A stretch of DNA of 64,000 nt, taken from positions 34,720,001 through 34,784,000 of the forward strand of contig CM060733.1 in assembly GCA_030704615.1 (NCBI GenBank), read 5' to 3'. This DNA comes from Takakia lepidozioides (Eukaryota; Plantae; Bryophyta). The notes beneath the pieces are model-generated. The model worked only from the letters and a program-made list of their open reading frames with translations. It searched no databases and was not told the origin of the DNA. Numbering within the stretch: the stretch's first letter is position 1; the number at the start of each line of letters is the position of its first letter. Below are positions 24,921 to 64,000 of the stretch, piece after piece. The position numbers were made by a program, and so were the translations under genes.

Positions 24921-25180
24921 TAAGGTCCCTTCTAAATTTCCGATGTTTGCATGAGTTCAATTTGAAATGAACCTTGTGTTAACACGAGGTTGATTTCAAG
25001 TTCCGAGAATGTTTATTTGAATGTTACTTGATGTGTTCGCAAGTGAACAAATGAGTTTGAGGAACGAATGCAACAAATGGTAGATGCATGCACAATACGA
25101 TTGATGATGTGACATACACCGATAGACATACGACTTCATTTTTAAAAAAAAAATTATTATTATTATTATTTTAAAATCCC

Positions 25181-25612
25181 TGGGGGTGATGCAAATCAAC
25201 CTTGCGTTGACGCAACCTTGATTTGAGAAATGAAAGCATCCCTATATATATATATATTTCCTCCCCTGGGGGTGATGCAAATCAACCTTGCGTTGACGCA
25301 ACCTTAATTTGAGAAATGAAAGCATCATATATATATATATATATATTTCTCCATGGGGGGTGATGCAAATCAACCTTGCGTTGACGCAACATTGATTTGA
25401 GAAATGAAAACATCATTTTTTGAAGTTTGTTTTTTTTTGTTTTTTGTTTTGTTTTTTTTTCCGTCGGGGATGATGCAAATCAACCTTGCGTTGACGCAAC
25501 ATTAATTTGAGAAATGAAAGCATCAATTTTTGAATTTGTTTTTTTTTTCTCCCTGGGGGGTGATACAAATCAACCTTGGGTTGACACAACCTTGATTTGA
25601 GAAATGAAACGA
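25181..25612. repeat. Array of five ~60-bp palindromic repeats with variable low-complexity spacers
   Basis: Unit GGGGTGATGCAAATCAACCTTGCGTTGACGCAACCTTGATTTGAGAAATGAAAGCATC at ~25181, 25268, 25354, 25467, 25554. Confidence 0.9.
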
Positions 25613-27790
25613 CATGGGAGGACTGGATCCTCGTCACAGTGAAGGGCATCCCACTGGAAATCCAGCCTAGTGTGGGCTGCAAAAATATAGTCCACCATTG
25701 GGAAGAAGTTGTGAGCTTGGCAACAAGACCACACCACCACCTCAAAGTGTTTAAAACACTTTTGCAAAAAGTCATAACAGCGTGGTCTCAAAACTACCAT
25801 CTTCTTGCCACACATCTTCCCCACAAAATCTTTGGGAAGGGATGCAGGCCCATTAGTAGAATGAAAAGATTCACATGACAGACCATTTAAGTCCATAATT
25901 AGTAAATGTTTCCTCGCTAGTCCAGGAAGTAAACTGTCATTTGGCTTCAACATGTAAGTAGGAGAAATTAAAGCAACCTGCTTGTTTGTTTTGTCCCCGT
26001 CTGCATCTTCCTCCCCATTTAAACTCCCACATACCTGCATACCAGAATCCGGTGTGCCAGGTGGCTCTGTCACCATTGCCCCCTGGATTGCTATTGCATT
26101 TGTATGTGGCAAGGGCTGAATTTCCACATGTACCTCGCAGCTCGCCTTCCCTGTATCCTGCTGCTGCTCGGTCAAATTCAAAAGATCATCAGTGACAGGA
26201 AGACATAAGGGCTTAGAGTGAGCACCAATTACCGTCTGAAATTGGGATTCCAAACATTTTGACATTGTCACAGCAGACGTATCCATCGTAGATGTCACTG
26301 GTCCTGGGCCTGGTAGATTAATCCCCAATCTGGCCACAAATGGCTTTCTGGTACTCAATCATGCTCTGCATCTGTAATTTTAAGTCTGCCATGTCACGTC
26401 CTTGTGATTCCACCAGTTTGTCCAAGCCATCCATCCTGCCAACTACTGTAGAATATGCGAGACTTCCCTCCTGTCAATCCATGAAAACTTGCCCAAGTAT
26501 GAATCAAACAAAAAAACCTAGCATGAACAACCACTGGAAAGAAAACCCAGGCCAAAAGCCTTGAAAAAAACCCTAGCAACCTATGGTGCAGCAACCACTC
26601 TAGCAAACATGGAAAACACACTTACCCGCCTGTCACTCCCAGCTGACAACCGTGACACTGAACCCTCTTGAATTTCATATAATGTAGGAGGGCACCCTGA
26701 TAGGGTTTCCTGCAAATTAATTAACCCATGCCACAAACAAATCAATGCCACAAGTCAGTAAGCAATGTGAGGGCTGACTATATACACATAGCAATTCAAT
26801 GAGCAACAAAATATAGAGTCGTGATGATGCCACTTACCAAGCGTGCTTCTACCATTGTCTTCCAACCACGGCCAGTCTTGGTAGGATTCTGAATTGCACC
26901 ATTTGCCTTCTTCATGTTGGCCGACACTTTGTGGAACACCTCTGTTTGCCAGTAACTTACAAGCTTGTTCCATACCTCCTCAGATACAGTAATGGGTTTC
27001 CCCTTACCACCCAACCACGCAGTGTGTGCTTCATAACGCTAGCTCTTCATTATTCTGCCAATTGTTTGTTTTAGGTGGAAGTCTTTTAACTTGTGTGGCG
27101 TATATGAAAATAGCTTAGCGCTAGGTGATCTCTGATTTCGTATACAAGTTCATCAGGTTGGTTGTTGATGGCAAGGGAACAATCTAGCTTGCGATAAGTC
27201 TGTCCTTTAAGGGCGGCGTGCCATACATTCCGGGTCTGACCATACGGGGCTCCTTTGAGGTTCGTCACAATCACCGTAGGAGGAAGACCTGCAGCTATTC
27301 TCTCTTCCTTCACCTTGGCAGCTTCAATTTTGGCTGAGGTATTAGCCCTCCTTAAAGCATTGGTTCTATCATTATTTGAAACGGCACCCTCCCCTCCTTC
27401 AGAGACCTCCATGCGCACAGGAGAATTCACAGCAGGATCGTGCCAAGTAGGGACTGGTGGCCAGAAGGCCGAAGACCATACTGGCCATACTGTCCATAAG
27501 TAGGAGGATATTCCAGTGGCCTGCCACCCCCATAGCTATTAGGGGGTGGCAAATATGGTGGAGGAGGATACTGGCCATACTGCCCATATGGAGGAGCACC
27601 ATATTGACCCTGACCATACTGAGTGTCAGATTGTGGGTACTAAGGCATACCATAATAAGGTGGGGTACTGGTGGCACAGAACCCAAAACGATGGGAGAGT
27701 TAGGGCCACCTCCTACGTTCTTATGGGCGCCATCTCCATTGCTAGCAGCAGGGATCGTGGATCCAGTGCGCTTGTGCTTGCCCTGAAAAG
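25610..27790 (-). mobile_element. CACTA TnpA/PTTA-like multi-exon gene with C-terminal FCP1/NIF-like HAD phosphatase domain, disrupted
   Basis: EEVWNKLVSYWQTEVFHKVSANMKKAN...TGRG (Transposase_24-like); coiled coil MDGLDKLVESQGRDMADLKLQMQSM; then KHLLIMDLNG...VLRPRCYDFLQKCFKHFEVVVWS...FQWDALHC. Confidence 0.6.
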
Positions 27791-34057: not shown

Positions 34058-37000
34058 GCGGCTGGAAAACAACAAACTAACAGGGAGCATTCCGGAGCAG
34101 CTGAATCAATTGACAAATCTCCAACAACTGTGAGTTCTTTGTCATGAGCTATCAGATGAGATTCTCCCGAAAGTACCTCTTTGCTCCGGGCTATTGTCTA
34201 CAAAATGTTATTGGCGAGTAATATGCGTTGAGGATCAGGAACTGAAAGTAAAAGTTGCGACTTACATCACCTTTTGTCTTGGGATTCTGACTATTTTGAA
34301 CTTCTAGCTGAACATATGTCTACTTCATCGGGTGCCCATTTCAATCTTGAAGATCCCCGGAAGATTCTGCAGTCTCCCTCAATGATTCGGCTGCCTATAT
34401 AATTCGGAAATCAATTTGGCACAGTATGCTTGAGCAGCTTCCTAATTAATTTGGAAATGATATCCAGGTTCCTCTCCAGCATATGTAGTTTGTGGCTGCT
34501 TCGGACATGAAAAAAAGAGAAATTAGGAAACAAACGATACTTTGTAACCTCTGCTGGAAGCTCAAAGAGCTAATGGGACAAGTGAAAGCATGAAACAAGA
34601 AAGAGAGCGGGCCTCTAGATACAACTAAACTGATGGATTGTCTAAGGGTCATAAAACGCCTCATGCACATGCTGCTAAGAATTCATATTCTCAAAATGAG
34701 ACACCTAAGCTACAGTGCCGGTTAGACAATAGTATCTCCCACGGACCACATTGTAGTAAGTTGAACTTTTTCCGAAGCAAGGGCTGAGCAAGGGTACAGA
34801 TGAGTTTATGGTGTGTTCTTCGGTGACCCTTCTGCTAAGATCTGATAAACATGTAAGGTGCCTGTTGGATGGTGGACAGATTTTTGCAAAACAACAACCT
34901 GAGTGGAGACATTCCCCAAGCTCTTATCAACAAAAGCAACTTGAAGTTGGAGTAAATTTTTCCACCGGTCATGTTCCCTGGTGTCGAATTTCAGTTTTCA
35001 ATGTTTCAATACTTCCTAATAGATTCCCGTTTTGAACCTTTGATTTGTAGTAGTTGCAGCAGACCAGTTATTGCCTTCTCTATGCAGACCCTTTGATGTC
35101 AAGCCTGTGGTTTGTTGGACAGGTGTCGTAACAAAGCTAATTGTTGGCTAGATTGTGTATCTTAAGGCCTCGCTTTTCTCGATGGGTTTTGATAGAGTAC
35201 TAATTGCTTGTACAATTTTCACGAGTAGGAGCAAGGTAATCACTAATAGAAGATGTTTCTATAATTCTAAGATGTTTGTTATTGAAACATCATCTATCTA
35301 TCTATCTATCTATAGATCTATCATCTATCTATTCATCACATGTATCTTAGAATAGAAACATCATCATATGTTTGATATTGCAGATCTTTCTTAACGCCCC
35401 CTTACAAAGTCCAGGAAGCCTCTGAATCTGGCCGAGTAGTCCCTCGATCTATGAAGTAGTTTCCAGAACTGTTAGTAGCCCTAAAGATCAGATTTATGCT
35501 CTTGTCCCAGGCTTGTCCCTTGCTGGTCAAGAGCATATGTGTAGACCCACTACAGACTAGATCGTTATCCAAAGACAGTTAAGTGCTGTGAGCTGCTTAG
35601 AACGAGAACAAGGCAATGATCTATATATCGCTTGGAAAATTTAGTTTAGAAACTTGACGGTTTGCGCCTGTTCTATTATTGCAGATCGTTCTAATAAGGG
35701 TTTGAGGCGGTGTCTGGATGTTTAGATCTCTCTAAGAAATCTTTGAGCTGTCCTGGAAAAGAATGTTTCCCAAAGTGAGTAAAGAAAACTTGGCCCTCCA
35801 GGAGAACACCCTGCAGCAGGAACGGCCGAAGCCGTGGGTTAAGTCATTGTTTTCATGTGGGTGCAGGACCTTCGGGAATCTACTCCTGTGTACGACGTCC
35901 CAGCCGTGCCCCGCACTCCGCCCCGCATCCCCAGGGAAAAAGAGCAACCTGGGCATCATTATCGGTTGTGTCATTGCAGGGGCCATAGTAGTAGCCGGCG
36001 CAGTTACAGGATTGATATACTGGCGCTGCTGCTGTGTCGGCCAACAATCGAGCCCCAAGCGTGAAAACAAGCTGCCAGGGTCTGTATATGTGAACTCTCT
36101 GAAGTTCTGAGATGTAGCAGATCAGATCCGATCCGAGTAAACACTAGTTCTCCGACCTAGTTTCAAAGAGCTATCGCGCTCAGTCAGCCAGCTATTATTC
36201 AGAGACTACATTAAAGTGCACTGTATGGTATGCTGCATGCTAGCAGATGTCCACTTTTTGTGACATCGAATGGAAGGTTAAATGCCGTTCAATTCCTGAT
36301 GGTGACTCCCGGCAGTTCATATTAGTTCTTCAGACGTATGAACTTTCGGAGGAAATCTGTTTTCAGCCTGCGAGATGAGGCTTAGATAGTCACCTATTGA
36401 ATGCGTGTAGTGGTTCACTAAAATTGGAACATACATGACACAAAACTCCACACAGAAAACAGTGAATAGTGCAATGAAGAAAAGTACTATAGAGCCAAGT
36501 AATACAATACTGGACCTTCCTCTGTCACTTGACGCACCACTTAACACTTGCTGCTGACAAAGCTGGAACCCTGCAGCAGGCTTGCTTAACACTAAGGACC
36601 TGTGTAGGCTGGCTAACATATAACAATCAAGAGAGATGGAGATCGCTCCGCACCAGCACCTGTATGTCTGCAGGACTGCTTCTCCCATCCTGTCTCATAG
36701 TATTGCTGATTTATAGGAGTCCTAGTTAAATCACCGCTAGTAGGTGGTGCCCTCCTATTAAGCTGGCACTGATCTAGAGAGCAGATCTAGAGAGAGCAGT
36801 GACGTGTTGGTGTTGCCGAGAATAGGCCATTCAACTGCATAACCTGCTGAAAGTCACGTCTTCATGAGTCTAGTTAGACTTTTTGCTCTGAATGGACTCT
36901 GAATGGACTATTAGTCATAAAATATGTACTTGTTACTATGCGCAAGAACAAACCACAGCTATAGTTTCTGAATCTAGATCCATTTTGATTAAAGTCGGAA

Positions 37001-39875
37001 ATCCCTTGAGAGTACACAAAGTTGTTCAGGATAATATGAGTCAGGACATCTTCAATAATTAATGGGGAAGCGCTTGAATAGGTACAGAAGGAGATGCCTC
37101 ATGTTTGAGACAGAAGCGAGCACACGATTTTCTTTTCACCAGGTGAAAATTGCTACCGACAACTTTAGGAGGAAAATTGGAAAAGGAGGTTTTGGCCCAG
37201 TGTTCTATGGCAATCTTCCTCATGGACAAGAGGTGGCAGTCAAAAAATTGGACGTCAAGTCTCAACAAGGGATGAAAGAGTTCTTCAATGAGGTTCAACT
37301 GACAGCCCAATGTTTAATGTACACTGTATACACTTCACGTATTGCTTGTCTGCTTTTCGGAGTTTTTCGTCAATGTAATAGAATCTATGTACTACGCAAT
37401 ACTTCCCAAATTGTGCACAACTTTGTAACATATATTTTATATAGCTGAGAAAAGACACACGAAAATTACTTCTCATTGACTCGGTTAACTTACTAGTCTC
37501 TGCAAACATTCATATCCAGGACTTAATGCACAGTTTACTCTGGCCAGTTTGGATGCTTACGCTGCTATCGAGCCAATGGTTTTGAATAGCAGCTCTAGGT
37601 GATTTAAAAAATTTAACAGGATTTCCACTGCATCTGTGACCGCATTATGTATCAGGTCGACCTTCTCTCCAGAGCGCGCCACAAAAACCTCGTGTCATTA
37701 ATTGGGTACTGCCAAGAGAACAGCCAGCGAATGTTGATCTATGAGTATCTTCCGATGGGCGACCTGCGGAAACATCTCTATGGTGTGAATTCTGACTTCC
37801 TAAAGGGAATGTATAAAGTCATTTCACGCTCGGACGCTACAGTAGAGTGCAGTACGGCTATACTCAGAGATACATGTATAATATCCCTCCATCGACATGG
37901 TGGAAAGTGGTTGATATATGTAGATCTATGGCCTTACTTTACTAATCCTACTAATTATTTGAGAGGTACAAAAAAACCTGTTGATCAGGCTTATATTGTA
38001 TCACTGCAATGCACTAAGGTTGATCTTTTCTCCTAAAGGATATAATCTAGTTTGTATCTGTAGACCTTCTCAATCTTATAACCACTGGCCGGTCATGGAT
38101 TCACTGTACCTCTAATGTAGTACATTGACTAGAGCGTTTAGTATGACCCAGGGCTTACATATTTTCTTGACAACTTCACCCAGTACCCCATGTGTATATA
38201 GACACACATGCAGTACACAAGGGTTCATTTTTAAGACAACCTCCCCACCAATTCTGTGGGTATAATCCACACTCACCTCAAGCACGATGTTAGATTTTTG
38301 GTTATATGGTATGATTCCCATGCTATATAGATTTAGAAACCTGGATCAAACAGGACCCCGAAAGATTTTTAAGACTTAAAAAACCCTCTTTGTTGTCAAA
38401 TAGGCACAGGTCCAGAAATGCCAATCGCAAGTGATCAGCCTACACTTGACTGGAAAACGCGCCTAAATATTGCATTCAATGCAGCACAAGGTAACAATTT
38501 TCGCTTTCATTCTAGACTTCTAACTTTTTTTCCTGAATGTTGTTTAAATTTCAGATTTCATGGGGCTATACTTAGATTACACTTTTGTCATTCTATGACA
38601 CTCATGTCATAGAATACATACTATATAGACTCATAGAAATGGCTCTGATGTAGTCTAATTGGGCGCACAGGGTTAGAGTATCTGCACACAGGTTGCAGTC
38701 CGAACATCATTCACCGTGATGTGAAGAGCAACAACATTTTGCTTACGAACAAGATGGTAGCTAAAGTTGCTGATTTCGGACTCTCCAAGTTGGCAGAGGA
38801 GGGGGTCAGTCACGTATCCACCTTCGTTAAGGGCACTCTCGGTTACCTCGATCCTGAGTACGTGCATTCCTCGTACATTCCTAACCAACTTATAATACTG
38901 TCTAATATATGTCTACTTCAATTTTCCTCAAATGAGCGTCAAATGGGGTTTTGGACGGTTCTACTGCAGCTTTTTTATCGTGCTATAGACATCTACAGGT
39001 CGCCTAGGTCAATGGCTGGTAGACAATTAGTAGCTAACTGCTCTCATAAAGCAATATGCAATCCCTTGCATGACATTAAAACTGTAACAGGTATTTCTCA
39101 ACTTTAAAGTTGACAGGAAAGAGTGACGTTTACAGCTTTGGCGTTGTGTTGTTGGAGATTATCTCCGGCCGACCACCTATTAACTACCGGGCTGTCGACT
39201 CTAAAGTAATCCTAGTCGATTGGGTAAGTTAATGCAGTTAATGTAACCTGCCTTTGTTGAGATTCAGCCACTTCATTTGAAGTGTTAAAATGCCCAGCTG
39301 TACCAGAATATATGTTTCAATATATTCATGATTTCATCATTCCATGATTGCGACTCTATTGTCTACTTGCCTTTCCGGTTATCCATCGATTCCTAGTCAG
39401 ATTGAGTTCAGTGGTTTGTGACATCTTGGACTTAGTGGGCCTAGAGGAGACTGAAACGATCTCGCGACAATGATCACCCTTACTTCTCTAGTTTCGGTGT
39501 TCGCATACTTTGGTAAGCACTTGTTACTCCTTTCGCTCAAACATAAATTCTTGCAAGCAGAATGTATCCTGGTGGCCATCTAGTAGTTTATGACAGCGTG
39601 TTTTTGATGTGGAACCCATAGGCCTCTGCAGGCCAACAATGAGAGAAGTGGTACACGGTCTAGGGGATGCAATGGCGTTGGAATATCTTGGGGATCCATC
39701 TCCAGAAATGTCCGCCACCTCGTCAAGCTTGTCTGACCCCCATCCAACAGCTGTTGGGAACGGAGAACTTAGCAGCTTGCAATCCAGTGCAGAATTTTCA
39801 GAGAGTTCAGTGGAGATTACTTCATATGCCCCCGATGATATTCATGAAATCCTTTCGAATCCCAGTGCAAGGTAG
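34058..39875 (+). pseudogene. LRR-I-type receptor-like kinase, C-terminal half (LRR exons, TM, kinase); last exon acceptor deleted
   Basis: 72-bp LRR exons 34058-34129 (RLENNKLTGSIPEQLNQLTNLQQL) and 34880-34951 (LQNNNLSGDIPQAL); TM exon GIIIGCVIAGAIVVAGAVTGLIYW; kinase IGKGGFGPVFYG/VAVKKL, HKNLVSLIGYC, HRDVKS, DFG; ~130 bp missing at ~39610 relative to copy A. Confidence 0.9.
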
Positions 39876-41387
39876 CTGGTGATAATACTCCTCTTTCTCC
39901 ATTCTCAGGAATAGGAGTACTCCCAAAGTCAGGAATGGGCTTCTGTAAATTAATGGGTTTGTGACTTTGTGAAGGAGAGGATCTTCGAGGGAGCTTCCAA
40001 GATATTCTCAACCTTTGCTCACTTCACGGCACACTGGGCAATCTCACAATCGTTCCTCCAGTTTGATATCACCTACACTACACTACCGCAGGGAAGGGAG
40101 GGTGGGAATCGCGTGGTCGCCCACAGTGTTAAGTCCACTGTAAGGCGCGACGGTGCACTCCCAAATAAGGATTTTGTTACGTGTCCTTCTCGGGTCTGAG
40201 CTACAAGACTCACCTACCAGGTCGAGATCGGAGGTCGAGATCGCTGGAAATTGCTGGATGGTGGAACGGACAATCATGGTCCATTGATGATCTCTCCTGT
40301 GCAGTTTTTATGGTCCGAAGTCTCAACTTTGTTTGGAGACCTGTTCTATATTATGCTCGGATGCAGTTCCGCAACAAGCTGGTGCACAAATCAGTAAGGC
40401 AGCACTTCAGACTGTACAGGTCCCACACCCAGATTTGATCAAGCCCATGATTGAAGGCCACGCCTAGATACCGATTTCTTCTGCATCCTCTTATGTAAAG
40501 CCTCTGAATCTGGCCGAGTAGTCCCTCGATCTATGAAGTACTTTCCAGAACTGTTAGTAGCCCTAAAGATCAGGTTATGCTCTTGTCCCTTGCTGTTCAA
40601 GAGCATATGTGTAGACCCACTACTGACTAGATCGTTATCCAAAGACGGTTAAGTGCTATTGGCTGCTTAGAATGCGAACATAACAATGATCTATAACATC
40701 GCTTGGGAAATTTAGTTGAGAAACTTGACAGTTTGCGCCTGTTCTAATTATAGATCTCTCTAAGAAATCTTGGAGCTGTCCTGAGAAAGAATGTGTCCCA
40801 AAGTGAGTCAAGAAAACGTGGCCCTCCAGTTGAACACCTTGCAGCAGCAGAGCAGCGGCGGCGGCTGAAGCCGTGGTTAAGGGTGCAGGACCTTCGGGAA
40901 CCTACTCCTGTGTAGGACGTCCGTTCATGGTGACCAAGGGGCTGGAGAGGGGGACCGAGATGGAAACACGGAAGAATCTGGAAAGATGGTGGTGGCATGG
41001 GATGAAGGCTACCTTTCAAAATCTCGTTCACGCAGGTCGAATTTTCAGCCAAGAGGCGCAACGTCATGGAAATGGCGGAGGCAGTGGTCTCGTGGCCAGC
41101 AAACATGAGGACGATGAGGTTGTCTAGGATGGCAGCCTCGGTGAGGAACTGTCCATTCTCGTCCGGCGTCGTCAGGAGCACTGGCAGAAGGTCTTGATGT
41201 GCGCGCTATGCAAGTTTGTCTTCGAGTTCCTGCCACGGTACAGATCATCCATGGTCATAACAATACTTTCAAGAACAGTCCCTGATCTCTTGAAAGAAAG
41301 GAGACAGCAACTAAGATAACTAAATTCACCCCTGACTGCAAGTACATCTCATAAATATCGGTCATTTGAGTTGCAATATGTAGCAAG
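38286..41387 (+). repeat. Segmental duplication, copy B (copy A at 2426-5644)
   Basis: Near identity to 2426-5644. Confidence 0.95.
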
Positions 41388-51900: not shown

Positions 51901-51980
51901 ATAATCTTGTCAAAACAAACACAACTGTGACAAAAACTAACAAGAGATATTCTACATTGACTGCTATGTCGTGCGCATAC

Positions 51981-52051
51981 ATATCGCTACACAACTACAT
52001 CGTTGTCCAAACCACACCACACATATATGCACCATAAAGTAGTCTGCCACA
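51981..52051 (-). repeat. Block A': inverted copy of the first 71 bp of the 3' LTR (62866-62936)
   Basis: 68/71 identity by manual comparison. Confidence 0.92.
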
Positions 52052-52052
52052 A

Positions 52053-52412
52053 TGATTGACAAGCTAAGAGACACACTGTTCACACCAGAAACAACATGAA
52101 TCCATCAGCATCACTCTTTAAAAACAGAAGTCGAGCCAAGGGCACCCCAAGCTATGGGGACTCCACCCCACAACAACCTATCCTCCTATCATAAGCACAC
52201 TCAGTTCTAAACGCATGAAGGAGCTCGGTCGCGCAGGCTCAACTCGAGAGAGATGAGCTGCGCGACTGACGCTCTCGTGAAGATAAGATGGTTCAGGTGT
52301 CAAACTCAAACTTGACACCTGACTTAACACTTGAACTAAATCCAAGTGTTAAATACAAATAACTAGTTTTATTCTAGTTAGTTTCACACTGTGTTTATTT
52401 AACTTGACAGCT
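52053..52412 (+). repeat. Block B (~360 bp), direct repeat with 63539-63899
   Basis: TGATTGACAAGCTAAGAG...TTTAACTTGACAGCT in both; internal hairpin TCAGGTGTCAA-n8-TTGACACCTGA. Confidence 0.95.
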
Positions 52413-52484
52413 GTCGTGCGCATCATCTGCTTCTCGGAGGGTTTTCCGTAAAGGCCCGGAGAATTTAATCCATACAATGGCAAC

Positions 52485-52758
52485 CTAGGTGAGGTACCGA
52501 ATCAACTCTGAAGCAGTGGCTATGGCGCCACCAGTGATTGCCGTGCGAATCATCTTGTCGTGATTAAAAGTGATCACGCTTTGTCACCCTTTCGTTCTTC
52601 AACATTGAGAAGGCCTCTAGCAATGTTCCATGAGTAGCTTCCACCCCTCCAATCTTGATGAAGCCGTCCAAAGTGTAGTTCAGAAAAGGATGGCCCAAGT
52701 CCACCAGCACATCTATAGTGGGAGAGTCAACTCTTGCTGATAGCCTCGAGTGCGGCAT
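52485..52758 (-). pseudogene. Captured intronless OEP16-like chloroplast outer envelope porin, internally deleted
   Basis: MPHSRLSARVDSPTIDVLVDLGHPFLNYTLDGFIKIG...; after deletion HDKMIRTAITGGAIATASELIRYLT-stop; UTR-like flanks. Confidence 0.85.
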
Positions 52759-52855
52759 TTCGCTCTGCTTTTCACACCCAAGTTCTTCTTTCCTGCATCG
52801 GCAACAAATCTCTCTCTGCTGTCGCTGACGGATGGAGAGAGACACGGAGAGATGG

Positions 52856-53043
52856 AGATCTCATTGATGGCAAGAATCTGCCCGTGGGACCTCTTCACCT
52901 TCTTCAACTTCTGAGGAAGTACCAAAACTTGGACTTTGCCCGCACCTCGTTGGTCGCCCACAACGTCATGCGGTACGCCTTCGGCTGCTCATCGGTTGGG
53001 GTAGGCAGTGCTCGCCCCACCACCTGGTACTGGTGAAACTCAT
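52856..53043 (-). pseudogene. RPL18A: Captured 60S ribosomal protein L18a (eL20) 5' fragment
   Basis: [43 protein letters not shown] / [18 protein letters not shown], frameshifted. Confidence 0.93.
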
Positions 53044-53121
53044 GGCTCCTGCCTGCTCTCTCTCTCGGATCAGCAGAAGCTAGAAGGAGCGCGAGACGGC
53101 CAATGCAGGGCGCTGCCGAGT

Positions 53122-53611
53122 CTAAAAAGGTAGGCTCATAACCATTGGTTGCAATGGCCAGGATGGCGAAACCAATGGCATGACCCAGAGCTCCCCAAGC
53201 AAGCACATCGACGAGGGTGAAACCAGCGGGGTCATTCGTCTTCAAAAAGCCAACGACCTCCTGTGCCCGGCTATCACCTCCTCGAAGTGAGTAACGCCAT
53301 TTTGTACAGGAGTCATTGCCTTGCAACATTGTCTCTCTGGAAGGGGAGGAACACAAATCGTCCCAGAAACAGAAGAGCTCCGGTGCTCAAGGAGATCACA
53401 ACCGCTGCATTGCATGTGGTCTTCGCCGAGGACTTGGCGATTCTAGTTTGGCTCGAAAACGACCGGTTGCTCATTGCCAGGGAATCCAGTCGGTTGCCAG
53501 ATCGCAGGCCGGGGAAGCTGGCCTGGACGGAGGCCACTCTTGCAACCTTCTCTTCCCGGACAGAGTGGGAATGCCAGTGGCCACCCATGAAGATGCAGCA
53601 CAGGCAGCCAT
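53122..53611 (-). pseudogene. PSAG: Captured full-length photosystem I subunit V (PsaG) copy, frameshifted
   Basis: MAACAASS transit peptide; [29 protein letters not shown]; [49 protein letters not shown]. Confidence 0.92.
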
Positions 53612-55554
53612 TATTGAAACAAACCGTATCAAAATCTGCACAAACTGTAGGCGAAGCTTCAGAGACGGGCGCTGTGTGCAAAGATCTGTGCAAGACCTGC
53701 GAGCTAGAGCGACAAGCCTGTGGTGGTGCACCTGTAACTGCAAATGAAACCTGGGAACGGTTTTTAATGGCGGTTTTTAACGTTTTGGTGTTAAAAAATA
53801 AAAATAAAAAATAAAAATAAACCTTTTGATCTAATTTAAATGATTTAGAGCCTGGTTGGCCATATCTTTGTCAAATGAGCTCCGTTTGACTCAGTTTTGG
53901 GGGGATAGCTGCAGAAAGGGGAAATCTACTTATCTAGACCTGGTTTCTTTTTTTGGGACTCTGCTAAAAATCTATGGAATTTTTAGAGTGTGAGTGTGCC
54001 GTGAAAGATCCACAATTCTGTTTCTAGAACCTGTTCTGGTCTATTTGAGAGACAAATCTGTGGATGTCCTCCTTGTATGGCTGGGGGAAATGAGGACGTA
54101 ATTGAAGGGCAGGTCTCTTCTCTTAGCTTGTGCACACAATGGGACAGGATTTATGTTTCCCAAGGAACTCAGACTGATTTGAGTGGAGAACAGTTGGACG
54201 AGTTGATTGCATACTGGGAGTCAGGCATTAGCAGTAGACAACAGACTGCTGTAGTTGGCGTTGAGGGCCTCAATATCGCTTTGGACAGTCAGAACTCTGT
54301 TGGAGCCAGCAGTTCTGCAGCTGTAAGTGAAATACCAAAGTGGGTGAAAGCTAGGCTTGGAACACAGCCAAAGACAGCCCCGGGGACCAAGGTGTTCAGC
54401 CACAGGCTGTGGTGTACTGGAGCAGAGGAGCAGGAGCTACACAAGTTTTTGTGCAATCAGATAGCGTTGCAGCCGGACACGCTCTGCACAAGGCAACCAC
54501 GAGCGGGGTTTCATTAGCGAGGACAAGTTTGTTCTGTTTGAAAGGAGATGCAGTCATTCGCAATGAGACACCCGCACCGTTTCAAAGCTTTCGAGTTGAG
54601 AGACTATTAGACCCTACCTTTGTTTTCTTTAGTGTTCAGTGAGCGGGACAGCAGAGTGTTGCTTTGTCTCTACCTGGCAGAAAGAGGAGGAGGGTTGGTT
54701 AGAGCGAGCTACTGTAGTAGCTTGGGACAAGGTTAGTGGCAGGTTTCTGGACATAGATAACCTCCTACCCTACCATCATGTAGAGCGAGCACTTTGAGAG
54801 AAGTCGGGAGTTGATAGCATAGATCAGGATTAGATCTTGCTTGGGCAGGCTTCTATGTTCCCCTCCATCTCTGACTATTTTCATTACCTTGTACTCGTAG
54901 TTGCCAAAGCCTCTCTTGGTGGAGGCCAGTCAGTCCGGGGTTTTGGGCTGGGATATTCTGCACGATCAGCATTGCAGCTGGATTTTGGTGTGGGGGGTGT
55001 TGATGTTTGATTTCTTGTGTTTGGATCCCCCCCAACACCTGCATGCTTGACTGTGCGCCATGTTGGTTTTTGTGTGGGCGCTTGCTTTCATAGGGATTAT
55101 TATTTCGATCACCGGTCAATCCTAGAGTATGCTGTCGGTGGTGAGGCTGGAGTGATGACCCAGCAAGACCACCAGTGTTTCTTCTATGGTGAGCTGGGTT
55201 GATGACCAGCCAACCATATATAGTTCTTGCGGTGGATGCAGGTGCAAGGTGCCCTGAGCCATTGGGATATGATCCTTAGACTGCAACAGGTGCCCACCCG
55301 TGTCACTATTAGATTAGTACTAGAGCCTTATAGTGTCACTGGAGAGAGGTGCACATTGTGAGTGTCATTACAGAGTTACCCAAGGGTTTTGAGGGGAGTA
55401 CGGCTACAGGCAGTAACAGTGAGAGTGGTTCACAAGACGAGGTATTCGGTTCAGACCACCTTCAACCGCCACCCTCAACTATTGTAGAGTCAGACACAGA
55501 CTCGGAGGCTTCATCAAACATGTGCAGTTTCATTTTCGCCATTGTTGGGGACGA

Positions 55555-56880
55555 CATGGAAAGGATGTATGGAGCTACCAAGGGGCCTCGTAGGTACTCT
55601 GGAGCTGTGGGCACAATCGAGTTGGATGACTTTATATCCAGGAGTTCGACAGCTGGTGTGATTTGCAGCAGATGCGCAATCCACAACTATTCACCCCATT
55701 CATGGCGTGGAAGGGACTGTTCCAGCATTTGGAAGGCCCCGCCTATGGACGATTACCACGAGTTCAGGCGAGGACATGAAGCAAGAGATTGAGGAGTGGA
55801 GGATGTATTGGTCACCCCTGACTATGTTTCCATTACTGGAGGCACGATGCGACCAGTAGCTGCAATCAGTAACCAATATCTCCCACTGCCAGCACTATGA
55901 GTAGTGGAACAAATAGTGCCACTTCTGCAGGTGGTACTAGTTCAAAAGGTGCTACTACTCCTCCTGCCACGACTACAACACATGTGCCTAGATTCAACCC
56001 GGTGGTGGAGTTCTTCCAGGAGTTGCGGAGGAATTACCAAGATGTACGGACAGAGAAGCTGCGAAGTTTGCAAGACTTCCAGCGCAAACCCAATGAAAGC
56101 CTGCGAGAGGTACACTCGTATGAGGCGCTTGATAAGTGTGACCCAAGGGGTTACTGAAGCTCAGGCAATCCAATTTTGGTATGGAATTCTGGACAAGGAG
56201 CTCAAGAGAAGGGTGCGAGATGCAACCCTGTTACAAGCAGCCCAACCCACATTAGCAGATGTGTTTCTGCTGGCTGAGCGGATTGAGCTCAACATGTGAG
56301 GAGCGAGTTGTCACCATTGGATTTGGCAAGGACATGCCTGCACGAGGCGCAGCTGCCAGCCCACAAGCACAAGGTACTGCCCAGCAACGTGGTCAGGGGG
56401 GCAGGTTTCCCAACCCAAGTTCCATGGATTTTATAGGGGACCTCAGGTGCAGAGGCCCGTGGCATCTTTTACAGGCCAACAACAACCAGGGGTGGTATGT
56501 TGGACATGTGGAGGACCCCATGTCAAGAAGATTGCCCAGAGAATGGCAGAAGGCCGGCACACACAACCTGCACAGTTGCAGTGTGGGCATTGTGGCAAGT
56601 ATGGACATGGAGATGCCCAGTGTTATGACTTGCACCTTGAGTTGCGCCCAGGCCAGTTCCAAGGGAACAATGGTGGCCGGGGGCGAGGTGGACCAGCCCA
56701 GAGGACGAGGTGGTCGGGCACGAGGTGCAGGCCAAGGGCAAGCTCAACATGGCCAAGGACGCGGAGGTCAGGGTGTTGCCAAGGCATGGCCAACCGGCTT
56801 CAGCAGCTAGAGCAGAGGCTCGCTGCCATGGCTACAGCTCAGGCGGTACCGGCTCCCAGGCGGGATGGTCCCACCTCCTG
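55555..56880 (+). CDS. Gypsy gag (frameshifted) with two CCHC zinc knuckles
   Basis: KLRSLQDFQRKPNESLRE; FWYGILDKELKRRV; CWTCGGPH and CGHCGKYGHGDAQC. Confidence 0.8.
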
Positions 56881-57499
56881 TTCCTGAGGGGAGATATGGG
56901 CATGGGATTCATGTGCGGAGCAACACTACCACTAGAGTAGGTGGAGTCTGCTGCAGCCGTGACTCGAGGAGCAGCACGAGTTCCTGAGCCACGAGGTGTA
57001 GAGGTGGAGTTGGATCCACAACGTGGGGAGGCAAGCCGTCAAGCGAGGCTGCCTCAGTCATTCATCTTGGCGGAGACAGTGTCAACACACCATGGCACCT
57101 AGTTTCTCGCCCGACTGTTACCGAGGCGGAGGGTTCTATGCCATTGGGGAGAGCTACACGTGCAATACTGACCTGCTGCCAAGGCTAGTGCAGCCGGTGT
57201 GTTGTTGGGGGCAGCCACCTCTGTGTGTCAAGCCCCCACTGTTCTCGGCAACCATGATTGCGACGCCGGGGGTAGACCAGCTGCAGTGTTCAGACTAGCA
57301 GCAACACTCTGTGAGAGTGGGGAGTCACTTCATCTTCTTCGGAGTTAGTGGAAGGTATAGTGGCAGAGGGATCCTTGGATTGAGGGTCACTGCCATGGCT
57401 GCGCCATGGCAAGCTGCAGCTGCCAGGTTGACGGAGCTGCCAGCTAGGCCAGCCTTTGAGCGCGCCATGGTGAACACCTGGAGTTGTCTTGTTAGACAC

Positions 57500-57860
57500 C
57501 AGGGAGGCATTTTCACTTGAGTGGACCGGCAGGCAAGAAGTACCGGCCACTGCGGGTCTTGTTGGACTCGGGAGCTCAGCCACTGATTTTGGGAGCTGCT
57601 ATTGCAGGTTTGGGCCATGGAGGCGGATATGGAGCCTTGTCTTTCCAGATACAGACATCTCTGGGAGGATCAGAGCAGGCTCGGGCATGACACGGCGTGA
57701 GTTGGCCATTGGAATACAAGCAATCATCCTGTAGATGGTCAGTGATGCGAGCCAAGGCCATTGTGACAGACGCGGTCTCTTACGATGTCCTCGTTGGTGG
57801 GGCAGTGTTATATCCCATGGGCTTCACCCTGGACTTTTGGGAGGAGTCAGCATCCTACAG
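57500..57860 (+). CDS. Retroviral-type aspartic protease (frameshifted)
   Basis: VLLDSGAQPLILG at ~57556-57595; YDVLVGGAVL. Confidence 0.85.
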
Positions 57861-58257
57861 CCTGGATGGCAGTCAGGGATGGTCATCGTGCACAGCTCCC
57901 GTGACATTCATTGGGGGTATTGCGGCTGCCCAACGGGGCAAGATGCCAACACTAGCCGCCTTTACAGCTGCAGTTAGTTGGCCTGGAGAGTTGCTGGAGG
58001 GCAATGCCCATGCAGAGGATGTGCCACCTCCAGCAGAGCAGGATGACATGCATGGTATGGCGGAGTTGTCTGCCATGGTTGCTCACACTCCATTGTGGGG
58101 TACGAGCAAGGATTTGCAGCAGGTTGCGGATCGACGGGTGCAACAAGCCTGGGTAGAGGCTTTTGTACCGTCAGAGAGGAGGAGAGTGCGGGTATTGCAC
58201 CAGGACCACCTCAGTTGTCACCACATTGGATACCACACCTATTGTGGCAGTATATGA

Positions 58258-59225
58258 TGAAGGAATTTGCCTTCTGGACTTGTTTGGCGGGATCAGCACC
58301 GGATTGGCTGCTGTGCTATAGGCAGGTGTGCGACTAAGGCGTTACCTGTATGTGGAGAGGGATGAGACTGCACGACGCGTCTCATTGCACCATGTGGCTC
58401 AGTTGGTACAGCAGTACCCTGACTTGTTGCCTGTTTCTGCAGTTTGTGGATACCAACAAGCCTTATCAGCAGACATTTCATTGTTGGGGGCGCAAGATTT
58501 GGAGCAGGTTGGCTCCATTGATCTGATAGTGGCAGGTTGGCCCTACCAAGGGCATTCATCAGCCGGGCATGGCAATGGATTGCGAGACTCGAGGACGGGT
58601 CTGTTTTGGGAGATGGTGCGGGTTTTTTGCGCCACTTGCAGCTTCATCAAGCTGTATCTCCAGCATACATCTTGGAGAATGTGCCACTGATGGGTGATTC
58701 TCGGGCCAGGGTGATGGCCAGTGTGCATCAAGTCCGGTCGTGGCTTGGGTCAGCAGTGCTGCTGGATGCAGCTGCAGTGGGATCACGGGCTCATCGTCCA
58801 CGGCTTTGGTGGACTAACTTGATGCCACTCATACTGCTCAAGCATGCATTTGATGGGGTGCAGCGGCCAGCACACCTCACCGTGGATGGCATTTTGGACA
58901 CAGGGAGGCAGTCTCAACATGTGAGACACGATGACCGTTCGCCTTTGGCAGTGGTCAACAGGGTGTCAACCACGAGCAGCATTACCTACACTGCTCAGTT
59001 TCCCAGGATCCCATGCTTTTCGGGATGGTGGACCTGGCCTCTTGTGGGATAGCCAGTTGCAACAGTTAGTGGAGCCTAATGCCGACAGCGAGAGCGGGCT
59101 ATGGGATTTTCCACTGGGACCACGGCGGTGCCTTCTCTTTTTGAGGCATCACGTTGTCAGGTGTTGGGGCAAGCAATGGATCTCAATTGCTTGACCTGGA
59201 TTATCAGCTTGGCTATGGCTGAGCA
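58258..59225 (+). CDS. DNMT3-like C5-cytosine DNA methyltransferase domain inside pol (disrupted)
   Basis: Motif I LLDLFGGISTG; II YLYVERD; IV IDLIVAGWPYQGHS; TGLFWEMVR; VI YILENV; VIII DAAAVGSRAHRPRLWWTNL; IX-X ERAMGFSTGTT...RCQVLGQAM. Confidence 0.93.
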
Positions 59226-59639
59226 ACGTAAAGTGCGGAGTGCCCTTCCCTTGACGGTCTCTCTGCCTACCGAGACGGTACAGGCAGCGAGTGGGGGCGA
59301 GCCGGTGAGGACCACGGGGTGTAGACATCCATGGCACACGTGGGAGGTGCTCGAGTTCAGAGGAGTTGGCAGCCAAGGCAGCTGTGATGGATGAGGTTGG
59401 GGATTCTTCTCGGGATGAGGAGGTTCTCAATGATGAGATGATGGGGCAGGATGAGGCCTTGTCATTGACTGAGTAGAAGGGAGTACTGCTCAAGAGGTTG
59501 CAGCATAGCAACCACGGGACGCGTCCTCTACCTCTAAGCCCACGGACTTAAGGTTGCAGTTACGGAGGACAATTGGGAGCCTGACATTGGACCCATTGTC
59601 ACCGGAGGAGAGAGACGACGTATACGGCGGTTCCGAGGG

Positions 59640-61010
59640 CTTACAGGAATTGCTTTGCCTTCAGTTTGAAGGACTTGAGCACTGAAGGGTCAAGAGATCC
59701 GTATTGAGTTGGCCACTGACACGCCAATCTTTCGGAGACCCTATAGATACAGTGACATGGAGAGGTCTTTGATTCAGTTGAGGACTCAAGATCTCTGGGA
59801 GGCAGGTTTGGTGGAGTTCTCTGATGGAGAGTATGCTTCAGCCACAGTGATGCCAGCCAAGAAGGATGTCTATGGCAATTGGACGGAGAGACGATGTGTG
59901 CGGTGATTACCGGCCTGTTAATCGTCAGACCAAGTCCAATATGTATGCCATGCCGACACCAGAGGAGATCTTTGATGCCATTGGGCATTCCAAGGTCTTT
60001 AGCACGTTGGATTACGATCCGGATATCACCAGTTGCCGATCAAGGAGGCGGATAAGCAAAAGACGGCATTCTGGGGGATCAATGAGCACGGGAAGGATTG
60101 CCTATACCAGTGGCGGTTTTTACCATTTGGCTTAAAAACGCTCCCGCTGAGTTTTCAAGAGTCATGGACAGGATTCTAGCAGGGTGGAGTTTGCTCGGTG
60201 CTACATAGATAACATCATCATCTTTAGTGCTACGGTGGAGGAGCATGAGAGACACCTTCAGGGGGTATTTGAGCGCTTAAGGACGCACGGATTGAAGTTA
60301 CATCCAGGCAAGTGCAAGTTTTTCCACAACCAGATTGACTATCTGGGTCACATGATATATCCTGGAGGATTGGGGGTACAGCAGACTAAGGTAGAGTCCA
60401 TTGCACATGTTTCCACGCCCCACGGATGTGAGCCGAGTTCGAGCTTTCATGGGTTAGCAAACTATTACAGACGGTTTGTTAAGGGATTTAGTGCCATTGC
60501 AAAGGCTCTAACCAAGCTGACCAAGGTGGACCAGGAGTGGCAGTGGGAAGATGAGCAAACAAGCTTTTCAAGAGCTCAAGGCGAGGTTAACCTCGGCGCC
60601 CATCTTGAGACGACCTATCAGGGGGCGTCCTTTTCAGCTACATACAGATTGGAGCATGCTGGGGCTTGGAGCGGTGCTCACATAGGTGGATGATGAGGGA
60701 AGAGAGTTCGTAGTGGCTTATGCTAGCCGCTCGAACAATGCTGCAAGTCAAGTATAGCTCATATGAGGGAGAATGCTTAGCTGCAGTGTGGGCCGTGGCA
60801 CACTTCAGGTGCTATCTATACGGCAATCTCTTCACCCTTGTCACGGATCACCAACCACTCAAGTGGTTGATGGAGTTAGACAAGCTTACGGGGAAGCTTG
60901 CACGGTGGGCACTCATCCTTCAAGAGTATGACTTTCAGGTGGTGCATCGACCGGGTTTGGTCAATCGCAATGCAGATGGGTTGAGTCGCAATCCATGCAC
61001 GAGCCAGCAG
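59640..61010 (+). CDS. Reverse transcriptase and RNase H (frameshifted)
   Basis: PIFRRPYRYS; CGDYRPVN; FSTLD; PFGLKNAP; CYIDNIIIF; KCKFF..YLGH; GLANYYRRFVKGF; YSSYEGECLAAVWAV..TDHQPLKW. Confidence 0.95.
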
Positions 61011-61379
61011 GATGACACTGGAGCTCGGTGGCATGGTGAGATGGACGAGGAGATGGTGCCCGGATGGCATGCATCTGCATTTCTGTGTATCTTGGCAGCG
61101 GAAAGCCAGGTTGGACCTGCAACAGGGATGACTGTAGATCAAGTGTCTGAGGACCCTGAGGCCAGAATGAGCAAGGTGGCGCCAAAGATATACATGGGTT
61201 CAGTTGTGTTGGACTACCTCCGCACTGGAGACACTGCAGCCACTGTGACTGCCAAGGAGAGGGATCGGATCCTACAACGAGCCAAGAGGTTCAAGTGGGA
61301 GGGGACACACCTGCTCCGAGTGTGGGAGGATGGTCGAGTGAGGGACTGTGCCTCACCCAACACAGCGGGCACGGTTAGT

Positions 61380-62400
61380 GCGGCATGCCCATGAGGAGTT
61401 GGGGCATTTTGGGGTGCGACGCACTCATAGTCTACTGCAGGGGCAGTATTGGTGGCGTGGTATGCACACAGAGGTGCAACAATTTGTGGCTAGGTGTGGT
61501 GTGTAACAGGTGCGTGCTTCATTCAACGCCCCTACTCCACAATTGCACCCTCTTCGATCATGGGATTGGGCTACAGGTGGAGTCTTGACTTCGCAGGGCC
61601 GTTGCCACTGACCATGCGTCACAACAAGTACGTATGCATTTGGAGAAGTGTTGGTTCCATTGCCTGATAAGGCTAGTGAGGGAGCTGCGTATACATTCTT
61701 GGATTGTGTGCTTAGCCGATTCGGTGCTCCAGCTGAGGTATTCACGGACCAAGGGAGAGAGTTCTTGGGGGAGTTTCAGGCTTTGTGTGACAAGGCCTTG
61801 ATAGACCACCGCACCACTTCTCGGGATCATCATAAGGCCGATGGCTTGGCAGAGAGAGTTGTTCAGACAGTAAAGAGGGATTTGCGCAAGTATGGCTTGC
61901 AGAAGGGACACCTAGGAGATTGGGACCTTCAGTACCCCTGGTTAGCCATGGGCTACAGGTTCAGCAAGCAAGCATCACTTGCCTCCTTCTCACCATACTT
62001 TCTTCTCTTTGGCCGAGAGCCGGATTTGCCTATATCCATTCGCAGAGAAGCTGCTACAGTTCTTAATCTTGACGATCCAGACGTGTGGGCACGTGCATGT
62101 GAGCAGCGTGCAGAGTTGTTCAAGAAAGTCATGCCCATGGCTTTCGAGAACCTTGCCATTGCACAACCGTGATACGTTGAGGTATGCTACCATACGTGGT
62201 GGGGGCTATCGTCCTGGGGTTCGGAGATTCAACCCTGGTGACTATGTCTATCTGCAGCAGACTGCTCCTACGACCTTGGATGTGACTGCATGACGTGTTA
62301 TTTTGAGGGTTCGAGAGGTCTTGCCCTCAGGCGTCTTGGTCTTGGAAAGTCGGGATGGCATCACTTGGAAGGACCATGTGCGTAATTGTGCGCCATGTCA
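61380..62400 (+). CDS. Integrase (HHCC zinc finger, rve core, C-terminal region)
   Basis: HEELGHFG..YWWRGM; WSLDFAGPLP; RFGAPAEVFTDQGREF; DGLAERVVQTVK; SPYFLLFGREP. Confidence 0.93.
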
Positions 62401-62459
62401 CCTTCCGAATGTCGATGGCAGGATTGACCCAAACCTGGCAGTGGTATCTGCAGGTTTGA

Positions 62460-62605
62460 GGTGCATGTTGTGTGGGTCTGCTAAAGGGGCAGCCACCATG
62501 ATGGTGTGTGATCGATGCTCTAGAGGTTGGCATATGGGATGCTTGACTCCACCTCTTGAGATGGTTCCGGATGCGGATTGGTTATGTCCACATTGCATTG
62601 GATAG
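62460..62605 (+). CDS. PHD finger at the integrase C-terminus
   Basis: CMLC...MMVCDRCSRGWHMGCLTPPLEMVPDADWLCPHC, canonical C4HC3 with PPL..VP...W.CP.C. Confidence 0.95.
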
Positions 62606-63538
62606 TGGGAGTGGATACAACCATGGAAGACTAACAAGAAACGCAAGGCCCAGCTACTAGGAGACCTTGAACACACGAGGTCCTGGCTCAAGTTCACAGA
62701 TTGCAAGACGACGACTAACGATGGGGCTACTCTTGTACCCGGGCTCTTGGTCTATAGAGTTTGAGTACAATAGGGACAGTGATAGAGGACTTAATACGGC
62801 TGTGGCTATTACATCTTGTAGCTATCTGGAGGTAGAGGGACCTATCCACCAGCTAGGGGGGCGATTGTGGCACACTACTTTATTGTGCATATATGTGTGG
62901 TGTGGTTTGGACAGCGATGTAGTTGTGTAGCGATATATAGATTGCCCGTCAGATTCTGCTTGTAAATCAATCTTGTTAGCCAGCGATTGCAGGGCCTGCA
63001 CCTGGAGCTCCAGGAACATCAATAATCAGCAATCTCCTCCAGCAAAATGGCTTTAAGCGGAACTCACTGGCTCAATGAGTTCCAGATCAATAACCTTTCC
63101 AAACCTGCCTTCAAATGCTCACCCCTGAGATCAGAACACCTGCCAAACACAACTGTCAGATGCTCAATCTACACAGTTGATGAGAACACCTGTGCCACAT
63201 GTCTTCAGACATCATCTTTTGATTAAATCGCTCAAAGCACTCGCTTGCATGTGACGTTTCTACACATATCCGCCACTTCACCATAGCGTAACCGTCACCG
63301 CGTCCTCAACGAGGTTGTGTGAAGTCCCCAGCAATTGCAGAAGGAAGGCAGAACATGTCAAGCTGCCAAGGGAGCCGGAAGACGTGAAGTTCCGTCTTAA
63401 AAATACGTTGCGTTTGCCCATTAAAGTTGCACTATCAACTAACACCTCCATCCGTTTCTCACTTTCAAAACAAAAACCACAAGTGCTAAAACTAAACTCA
63501 CCTCCGGCACTCACAGATGCAAGCTCATCTCTCTCGAG

Positions 63539-63899
63539 TGATTGACAAGCTAAGAGACACACTGTTTACACCAGAAACAAAATGAATCCATCAGCATCAC
63601 TCTTTAAAAACAGAAGTCGAGCCAGGGGCACCCCAAGCTATGGGGACTTCACCCCACAAACAACCTATCCTCCTATCATAAGCACACTCAGTTCTAAACG
63701 CATGAAGGAGCTCGGTCGCGCAGGCTCAACTCGAGAGAGATGAGCTACGCGACTGACGCTCTCGTGAAGATAAGATGGTTCAGGTGTCAAGCTCAAACTT
63801 GACACCTGACTTAACACTTGAACTAAATCCAAGTGTTAAATACAAATAACTAGTTTTATTCTAGTTAGTTTCACACTGTGTTTATTTAACTTGACAGCT
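63539..63899 (+). repeat. Block B, second copy, inside the putative 3' LTR
   Basis: Near identity to 52053-52412. Confidence 0.95.
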
Positions 63900-64000
63900 A
63901 CTACAGAGTTTCTTAAGGGGATCCAGATTTTATATTGCCCAGAGAAACAGCCAAATTCTCCTTGTGCTTTTGTGTTCTCCAGCCGAAATCTAAGACTCTG

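Follow-up and report, generated by a model that had tools for sequence, protein, structure and literature searches.

The window (the whole 64-kb stretch of Takakia lepidozioides DNA analysed here) carries a retroelement whose Gag, protease (PR), reverse transcriptase (RT), RNase H (RH) and integrase (IN) stand in the Ty3/Gypsy order, with a DNMT3-like cytosine methyltransferase (DNMT) between protease and RT (Table 1). The initial annotation had described this protease-DNMT-RT arrangement, which was recovered here; a PHD finger, split terminal repeats and an inversion had been overlooked. We found a DDE integrase core, indicating that a tyrosine recombinase is not the integration enzyme of the window element. 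A C-terminal chromodomain is absent from this element; the PHD finger is followed by a stop. The PHD finger itself lacks the Trp that in PHD fingers forms part of the H3K4me3-binding cage, and would therefore favour H3K4-unmethylated chromatin; the ADD domain of DNMT3 reads chromatin unmethylated at H3K4.

Table 1. Features of the element and its surroundings, in window coordinates
Feature	Position	Strand	Basis or remark
4-bp target-site duplication GCTA, left	51963..51966	.	raw sequence lines
Y2 repeat, element 3' terminus, ends CACGACA	51967..52052	-	family contigs run from 51967 into X end
X2 repeat	52053..52409	-	98% identical to X1; repeat comparison
Palindromic junction CACGACA-GC-TGTCA (right-end and left-end sites separated by 2-bp spacer)	52403..52418	-	
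Last 12 bp of Y1	52412-52423	-	after junction palindrome
Low-copy filler, PsaG and ribosomal L18a gene fragments	52424..53738	-	not of element family; depth falls
5' leader of inverted coding core	53740..55555	+	high family depth; start resembles post-PBS leader of relatives
Gag, Zn-knuckle-like CCHC motifs, frameshifted	55556..56900	+	about 40-48% identity to Marchantia P0007 N-terminus
Aspartic protease, DSG at 57565	57425..57900	+	alignment of relatives
DNMT3-like C5 cytosine methyltransferase	58259..59229	+	this copy: stop 58319, Cys>Tyr 58544, three frameshifts
Conserved stop, predicted readthrough site TAG-CAA-CCA	59506..59514	+	alignment of relatives; TMV-type context
Reverse transcriptase	59574..60560	+	PF00078 (RVT_1) E 1.1e-12
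RNase H	60587..60974	+	PF17917 E 4.8e-20
Integrase, HHCC region and DDE core	61380..62170	+	PF00665 E 4.1e-5, under gathering score
PHD finger, integrase C-terminus	62450..62602	+	PF00628 E 6.7e-11; retained in relatives
Polypurine-tract-like run	62851..62864	+	same run ahead of Y1 in relatives
Y1 repeat without last 12 bp, right edge of inverted core	62865..62939	+	
Low-copy filler	62940..63521	.	depth
PBS-like site, 17 nt, predicted self-priming	63522..63538	-	exact complement of X positions 152-168
X1 repeat, element 5' terminus, starts TGTCA	63539..63896	-	
4-bp target-site duplication GCTA, right	63897..63900	.	raw sequence lines

Inversion, filler and decay of the window copy

The termini of this copy lie on the minus strand (X1 63896-63539; Y2 end at 51967) within an intact GCTA duplication, and the coding core (53740-62939) lies on the plus strand, inverted with respect to both terminal segments (51967-52423 and 63522-63896). 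The core is missing exactly what the ends retain, namely the final 12 bp of Y1 together with the PBS-like site, and TGCA is found at both of its inner breakpoints. A DIRS-type inverted terminal repeat was rejected as an explanation of the Y copy in inverted orientation: in relatives the split repeats are direct, and the inverted Y is therefore a private inversion. Both breaks are occupied by low-depth filler that includes the PsaG and L18a fragments; segment 62940-63521 is probably the other half of 52424-53738, and we infer a history of insertion into Y1 followed by inversion. The best match of the PsaG fragment was PDB 6L35, the Physcomitrium photosystem I, which together with the bryophyte origin of the closest named relatives points to a bryophyte and probably a moss as host. 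The host-gene pieces in the filler (PsaG, L18a and perhaps a third) share one orientation, and the filler is like a gene-capturing element or captured mRNAs.

Other repeats were also present in the window. Two copies of about 3.2 kb (2426-5644 and 38286-41387) are 97-99% identical and 35.8 kb apart, with a third, partial copy at 35416-35900; this repeat is probably another LTR element. Direct repeats at 5696-5980 and 10362-10646 (98% identity, 4666 bp apart) are probably the LTRs of a short retrotransposon, and a tandem array of five units of about 90 bp occupies 25172-25638.

The window DNMT is interrupted by a TAG stop at 58319-58321, and its catalytic codon is TAC at 58544-58546. In other family contigs, a Gln codon stands at the first site in 243,960 of 244,699 summed depth (99.7%; run X2). 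At the second, a Cys codon accounts for 818,144 of 828,812 in run X2 and 21,020 of 21,293 in run X1, which are runs of one sample; the catalytic Cys is intact family-wide, at 98.7% of the pooled contig depth. It was likewise present in run X9, which comes from another organism. Both window changes are C>T-type transitions in a CAG (CHG) context and are private to this copy, in line with their initial description as deamination-type CAG>TAG and TGC>TAC events. Three frameshifts within the DNMT (near 58623, 58964 and 59086) and four more between DNMT and RT were not seen in other copies; the many 1-2 bp indels of the window copy reflect either decay or assembly error. Both the stop and the Cys-to-Tyr change represent decay confined to the window copy, which is dead. 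Between its X1 and X2 repeats, about 358 bp long, we counted 6 substitutions and 1 gap (98% identity), and the insertion is therefore fairly young.

The methyltransferase domain and its element family

The DNMT motifs run in linear order on the plus strand (DLFGG 58277, GWP-x-QG 58535, ENV 58675, HRPRLWW 58792, MGF 59101, LGQA 59164) and sit between the DSG motif of the protease (57565) and the RT (YIDN at 60202). A profile search of the window yielded a PF00145 match at 58322-58687 that exceeds the gathering score (E 1.7e-7). By alignment, the window DNMT pieces are collinear with unbroken relatives, with no intron-sized gap. We therefore turned to P0003, an unbroken natural relative about 70% identical to these pieces. 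Its best solved structure in a sequence search was human DNMT3A (E 6e-12), compared with E 1e-4 for DRM2, where the alignment was limited to the C-terminal part, and E 4e-3 for M.HhaI. The predicted structure of P0003 (pLDDT 88.9) retrieved DNMT3A, DNMT3B and DNMT3C exclusively among the Foldseek matches listed (best E 8.7e-19), with a TM score of 0.83 on target and about 22% identity against DNMT3A; as modelled, the fold is that of a complete DNMT3 catalytic domain. These comparisons confirmed, at the level of sequence, that the window domain is an intron-free, non-permuted DNMT3-type C5 methyltransferase. The initial annotation had proposed just this, contrasting the domain with the DRM type and placing it co-oriented between protease and RT, and it was correct in each respect.

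Host bryophyte DNMT3s bear a C-terminal DUF3444 (PMC6453930). This domain is absent from the Marchantia protein P0007, for which PF00145 was the sole profile match and which ends 75 aa past it. The window family shares linear motif order and fold with host DNMT3 (PpDNMT3a/b; PMC6453930) and animal DNMT3A/B, but differs from them in having no DUF3444, PWWP or ADD domain and in sitting within a retroelement.

Of 1089 candidates in a protein search, 48 were longer relatives, with identities of 64-73% for the closest of them. Named hosts were Marchantia polymorpha, Calypogeia fissa and Sphagnum, to which a further search added M. paleacea and Riccia. In Marchantia P0007, Gag-PR-DNMT forms a single reading frame. 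We additionally compiled 81 related loci (80 kept of 92, plus L081 from the prokaryote collection), which cannot reveal DNMT-less members because they were selected by DNMT. All seven domains were present in the order Gag-PR-DNMT-RT-RH-IN-PHD in 12 of the 81; the remainder are shorter contigs or carry deletions, and none has a permuted order. Three loci (L079, L080 and L031) have lost RT-RNase H and retain Gag, PR, DNMT, IN and PHD. L081 is filed in a cyanobacterial bin, and the proteins P0216 and P0300 under bacterial bins, likely reflecting eukaryotic contamination. Contig depth in run X2, which is not equivalent to copy number, was 618-927k over the DNMT and 790-1,187k over RT-IN, as against 131-169 in the flank, with no dip over the DNMT.

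The DNMT shows the mark of purifying selection, as the dN/dS check proposed at the outset indicated: pairs within a distant group (L047, L048, L049 and L081) gave values of 0.109, 0.069 and 0.109. For the window DNMT against four peat-moss-type loci, dN/dS was 0.09-0.11 with dS near saturation, and pN was about 0.20, equal to that of RT. Between closely related dead copies, the DNMT dN/dS was 0.37-0.58. The catalytic Cys is kept in 78 and the Glu in 71 of the 81 loci, and both residues, together with the SAM-binding motifs, are retained across deep divergence.

In separate trees of the DNMT and the RT (40 proteins), 'DNMT before RT' elements stood apart from 'RH-DNMT-IN' elements (support 0.98 and 1.0), and DNMT-RT proteins lacking a stop between the two domains were the sister group of the window family. 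These trees sampled 20 of 93 RH-DNMT-IN proteins plus named ones, and the deep nodes of another tree in the same analysis were poorly supported. In 71 of the 150 nearest representatives, the DNMT lies between RNase H and integrase. Proteins of this chlorophyte type include P0057, P0099, P0159, P0211, P0231 and P0274, with Monoraphidium, Haematococcus, Chromochloris and Cymbomonas among the named hosts. Other retroelement domains were present in at least 90 of the 150, the other 60 being mostly short fragments. Among the relatives listed in the protein searches, from which the trees were drawn, there was neither a Klebsormidium-named protein nor a host DNMT3, and the viral contigs searched contained no relatives. 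Some distant members (P0067; P0106 and P0148) carry an additional domain, either a PTM/DIR17-like Tudor downstream of the PHD finger or a G-patch that precedes the integrase.

These data bear on whether the DNMT stems from a single insertion of a host DNMT3 gene or retrocopy into the window copy, which we regard as extremely improbable. Nothing except the decay of the window copy speaks for such an event. Against it, liverwort, peat-moss and more distant relatives all have the domain at this place, the depth profile lacks a dip, dN/dS stays near 0.1, and other retroelement domains accompany the DNMT in at least 90 of the 150 nearest representatives. A one-off insertion, named in the initial annotation as the outcome that would overturn its reading, is thereby ruled out. 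The sequence data instead support the DNMT as an inherited, selected component of an abundant bryophyte element family.

Conserved stop and split terminal repeats

Forty-nine of the 81 loci span the region from the DNMT end to the RT start, corresponding to 42 distinct sequences and, as L040 and L053 have common flanks, to 41 insertions. A stop was present at one aligned site in all 42 (27 TAG, 15 TAA), and the codon after it was CAA or CAG in 41. In L048 and L081, this is the sole in-frame stop from Gag to PHD, over about 6.5-7 kb. The DNMT had initially been thought to be released from Pol. This does not hold: it precedes the conserved stop in 42/42 distinct spanning loci and RT lies beyond it, so that, judged from the reading frames, the DNMT ends a Gag-PR-DNMT frame and is not part of Pol.

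Because the conserved stop separates RT-RH-IN from Gag-PR-DNMT, production of the former likely needs readthrough. The UAG-CAR-YYA context is essential for readthrough in tobacco mosaic virus (TMV), according to the sections of PMC2754532 covered here, and the same stop context is found in the window and in L047, L048, L049 and L081 (TAG-CAA-TCA or TAG-CAG-TTA in the four loci). In 37 of the 42 sequences, all peat-moss-type, the stop is followed by CAA-CCC or CAA-CTC, a hexamer whose final C departs from CAR-YYA and behind which an ATG lies; both this and the 15 TAA stops count against readthrough. A further difference from the TMV-type stop is that the one in the window family would gate RT-IN behind Gag-PR-DNMT. 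Reinitiation at the post-stop ATG was rejected as a general route, since this ATG is missing in the window, L047, L048, L049 and L081. We detected no shared RNA structure downstream of the stop among three folded sequences, a comparison made with no shuffle control. Readthrough thus appears the likely source of RT-RH-IN; if this is right, DNMT output would match that of Gag, with RT-IN reaching a few percent of it. The stop is absent in related groups (P0047, P0064 and kin). Gag-level dosage of the DNMT is therefore not needed everywhere, given these groups and those with the DNMT between RNase H and integrase.

The relatives do not possess two full direct LTRs. Their layout is X1, PBS-like site, ORFs, purine run, Y1, GC, X2 and Y2, with the repeats split as X-ORFs-Y-GC-X-Y. 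The termini are of the TG..CA type (TGTCA and CACGACA), and the 4-bp duplications were perfect in seven of the eight insertions showing both ends, with three of four bases matching in the eighth. The internal junction CACGACA-GC-TGTCA equals both termini joined by 2 bp. This motif is common to the window, the peat-moss-type loci, L047, L048 and L081, between whose lineages synonymous sites are saturated, and the CpG and CAG/CTG sites that it contains are conserved across them. If U3 is taken to begin at the purine run and U5 to extend to the PBS-like site, Y-GC-X can be read as an ordinary LTR; the inserted form can then be read as a circle with two LTRs, the upstream one of which has been cut at its GC. 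In L025 (13441-13458; the same insertion as L026), roughly 10 nt from the PBS-like site, along with a few additional bases, remain at the X|Y joint, which fits the expectation for end-joined cDNA circles.

Two further kinds of evidence were considered and set aside. Short X-ORFs-Y forms (L027, L035 and L079) are uninformative, as they can result from direct insertion, from recombination between Y1 and Y2 or from collapse during assembly. The circular assembly of L081 was rejected as evidence for circles, since split repeats collapse in assembly. In L010 and L011 (6330-6590), an inverted purine run and Y form the left end directly before the PBS-like site; this is another rearranged copy, possibly an autointegration product.

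Since a random cut of a two-repeat circle would produce it, the mirror form is expected half the time. However, none of 16 distinct 5' ends was preceded by Y-GC, as against 8 distinct Y-GC-X 3' ends. This constantly upstream cut would be accounted for if strand-specific methylation of the palindrome during reverse transcription picked which of the two identical junctions the integrase cuts. The CpG and CAG/CTG sites conserved in the junction across saturated lineages are in line with such a role, as is the A-ORF-B-A-B layout that other published DNMT3 elements have as well. The same asymmetry could nevertheless arise from protein binding close to the PBS or from the order in which the strands are synthesised, and the mirror form may be lost or collapsed in assemblies, leading us to consider this explanation decidedly unlikely.

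The site following X1 is complementary to the interior of X. This complementarity was 17/17 in the window and 14/14, with different letters and at X 166, in L024 and L046. Of 13 peat-moss-type 5' ends, 7 showed strong complementarity (at most 8 of 200 shuffles reached the score) and 6 weak complementarity (more than 10 of 200 did), and L081 offered a 13-nt candidate only. The pattern fits, and leads us to predict, Tf1-type self-priming. Self-priming has also been predicted for moss Tcn1 elements in the covered sections of PMC6317226; Tf1/Sushi-Tcn1 elements share with the window family the post-5'-repeat site that complements the repeat interior, and moss hosts, but have ordinary LTRs and a chromodomain instead of a PHD finger, DNMT and split repeats. 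A parallel for the predicted cleavage is provided by foamy virus, whose integrase cleaves the palindromic 2-LTR junction of circular cDNA (PMC1180852, sections covered). In both cases, integrase would open a palindrome in circular cDNA. The foamy-virus palindrome is the joint of the cDNA ends, whereas that of the window family is internal to the repeat and the joined ends persist in the inserted copy.

Proposed role of the methyltransferase and related systems

Our preferred reading is that the window holds a dead, internally inverted copy of a high-copy Ty3/Gypsy element whose DNMT closes the Gag-PR-DNMT frame, is packaged at near-Gag level and methylates the cDNA before integration, which we consider probable, if well short of certain. 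RT-RH-IN-PHD would be made solely by readthrough of the TAG-CAR-YYA stop, and the protease would free the DNMT within the particle. The RNA 5' end would prime its own reverse transcription at the site after X1, as in Tf1, and the resulting linear cDNA would be flanked on both sides by a Y-GC-X repeat. Once the cDNA ends are joined, the integrase would open the CACGACA-GC-TGTCA palindrome within the upstream repeat, remove the 2-bp spacer and insert the DNA with a 4-bp duplication, resulting in X-ORFs-Y-GC-X-Y. The PHD finger would steer integration toward H3K4-unmethylated chromatin, where the pre-methylated copy would arrive resembling host heterochromatin.

The support for cDNA methylation is positional and evolutionary, and is complemented by the SymbioDIRS-Dnmt3 domains, which methylate CG de novo in yeast (PMC5890265, sections covered). 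In the window, neither the CpG observed/expected ratio (0.49 in the element, close to 0.58 in the flank) nor the private transitions (5, 8 and 19 of 32 in CG, CHG and CHH contexts, following the background mix) revealed a self-methylation signature in element composition. This null result is one of two observations that would fit retention of the domain for a job other than DNA methylation, such as cDNA or RNA binding, RNA methylation or particle assembly; the other is the inactivity on yeast DNA of the corresponding K. nitens domain, a result that its authors call inconclusive (PMC5890265, sections covered). Both observations also weigh against cDNA methylation. Such a non-methylating job is quite unlikely in our view, as the catalytic Cys, Glu and SAM-binding motifs are kept over deep divergence and the P0003 model (pLDDT 88.9, TM 0.83) shows a complete DNMT3 catalytic fold.

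Alternatively, the enzyme could act mainly on nuclear chromosomal DNA, so as to silence copies of the family or its competitors, or to reshape the methylome of the host. Expression at Gag level would supply free enzyme, repeat copies are heavily deaminated, and host-level effects have been raised by de Mendoza et al. (PMC5890265, sections covered). We nonetheless regard mainly nuclear action as unlikely. Because it is fused to Gag and protease, the DNMT would be packaged; moreover, P0007 is missing the DUF3444 of host bryophyte DNMT3s, and the K. nitens methylome is ordinary as described in PMC5890265.

The closest known system is KnitGypsy-Dnmt3 of Klebsormidium nitens, a Gypsy element with a DNMT3 domain that was described by de Mendoza et al. 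(2018, PMC5890265), a study already cited in the initial annotation, which we likened to the window family by its published description in the sections covered. Shared features are an intron-free, non-permuted DNMT3 in a Gypsy element, purifying selection and DIRS-like split repeats (A-ORF-B-A-B); the paper gives an 'A-coding region-B-A-B' layout for SymbioDIRS-Dnmt3 and says that it is common to K. nitens. The two differ in that the paper puts the DNMT in the Pol ORF, whereas that of the window family ends the Gag-PR ORF, and in their hosts, an alga and a land plant, respectively. The sections of PMC5890265 covered do not describe a PHD finger, readthrough, self-priming, 4-bp duplications or a junction motif for KnitGypsy-Dnmt3. 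SymbioDIRS-Dnmt3 likewise combines a DNMT3 domain, with CG activity shown for it, and the repeat layout, but has a tyrosine recombinase where the window family has a DDE integrase, an unrelated RT class and a dinoflagellate host.

Our literature search, which covered few subscription papers, found no land-plant description of a DNMT3-bearing Gypsy element and no split-repeat or PHD Gypsy elements. A 2026 preprint refers to 'streptophytes (Gypsy-DNMT3)', the text covered containing no mention of moss, Marchantia or land plant (10.64898/2026.05.21.726589), and PMC12344493 to 'streptophytes and dinoflagellates', with nothing more in the one supplement searched. The parts covered of papers on Gypsy-DNMT3 name streptophytes only, whereas chlorophyte RH-DNMT-IN relatives exist. 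Gypsy-borne DNMT3 is thus already known; what appears new from the sequences is its abundance in bryophytes and the position of Gag-PR-DNMT before a conserved stop. New for such a family, relative to the literature found, are also the conserved leaky-type stop, which would set the methylase dose, the predicted self-priming site and the proposed insertion by an intra-repeat cut.

Practical consequences follow for genome annotation. Standard LTR finders would miss split-repeat elements because they require two full LTRs (PMC6317226, sections covered), and gene models of such elements can inflate counts of plant DNA methyltransferases. Should methylation indeed select the junction to be cut, the methylase would be a built-in part of integration and not camouflage alone, and the A-ORF-B-A-B layout common to the published methylase-bearing retroelements would be explained. 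Green-lineage integrase elements would then insert end-joined cDNA via an internal palindrome, with DNMT3 present at capsid level. DNMT3-Gypsy elements had previously been described from one alga, where enzyme activity and role were left open. Given the unbroken Gag-PR-DNMT models in Marchantia polymorpha, the question of why a transposon carries a silencing enzyme becomes directly testable.
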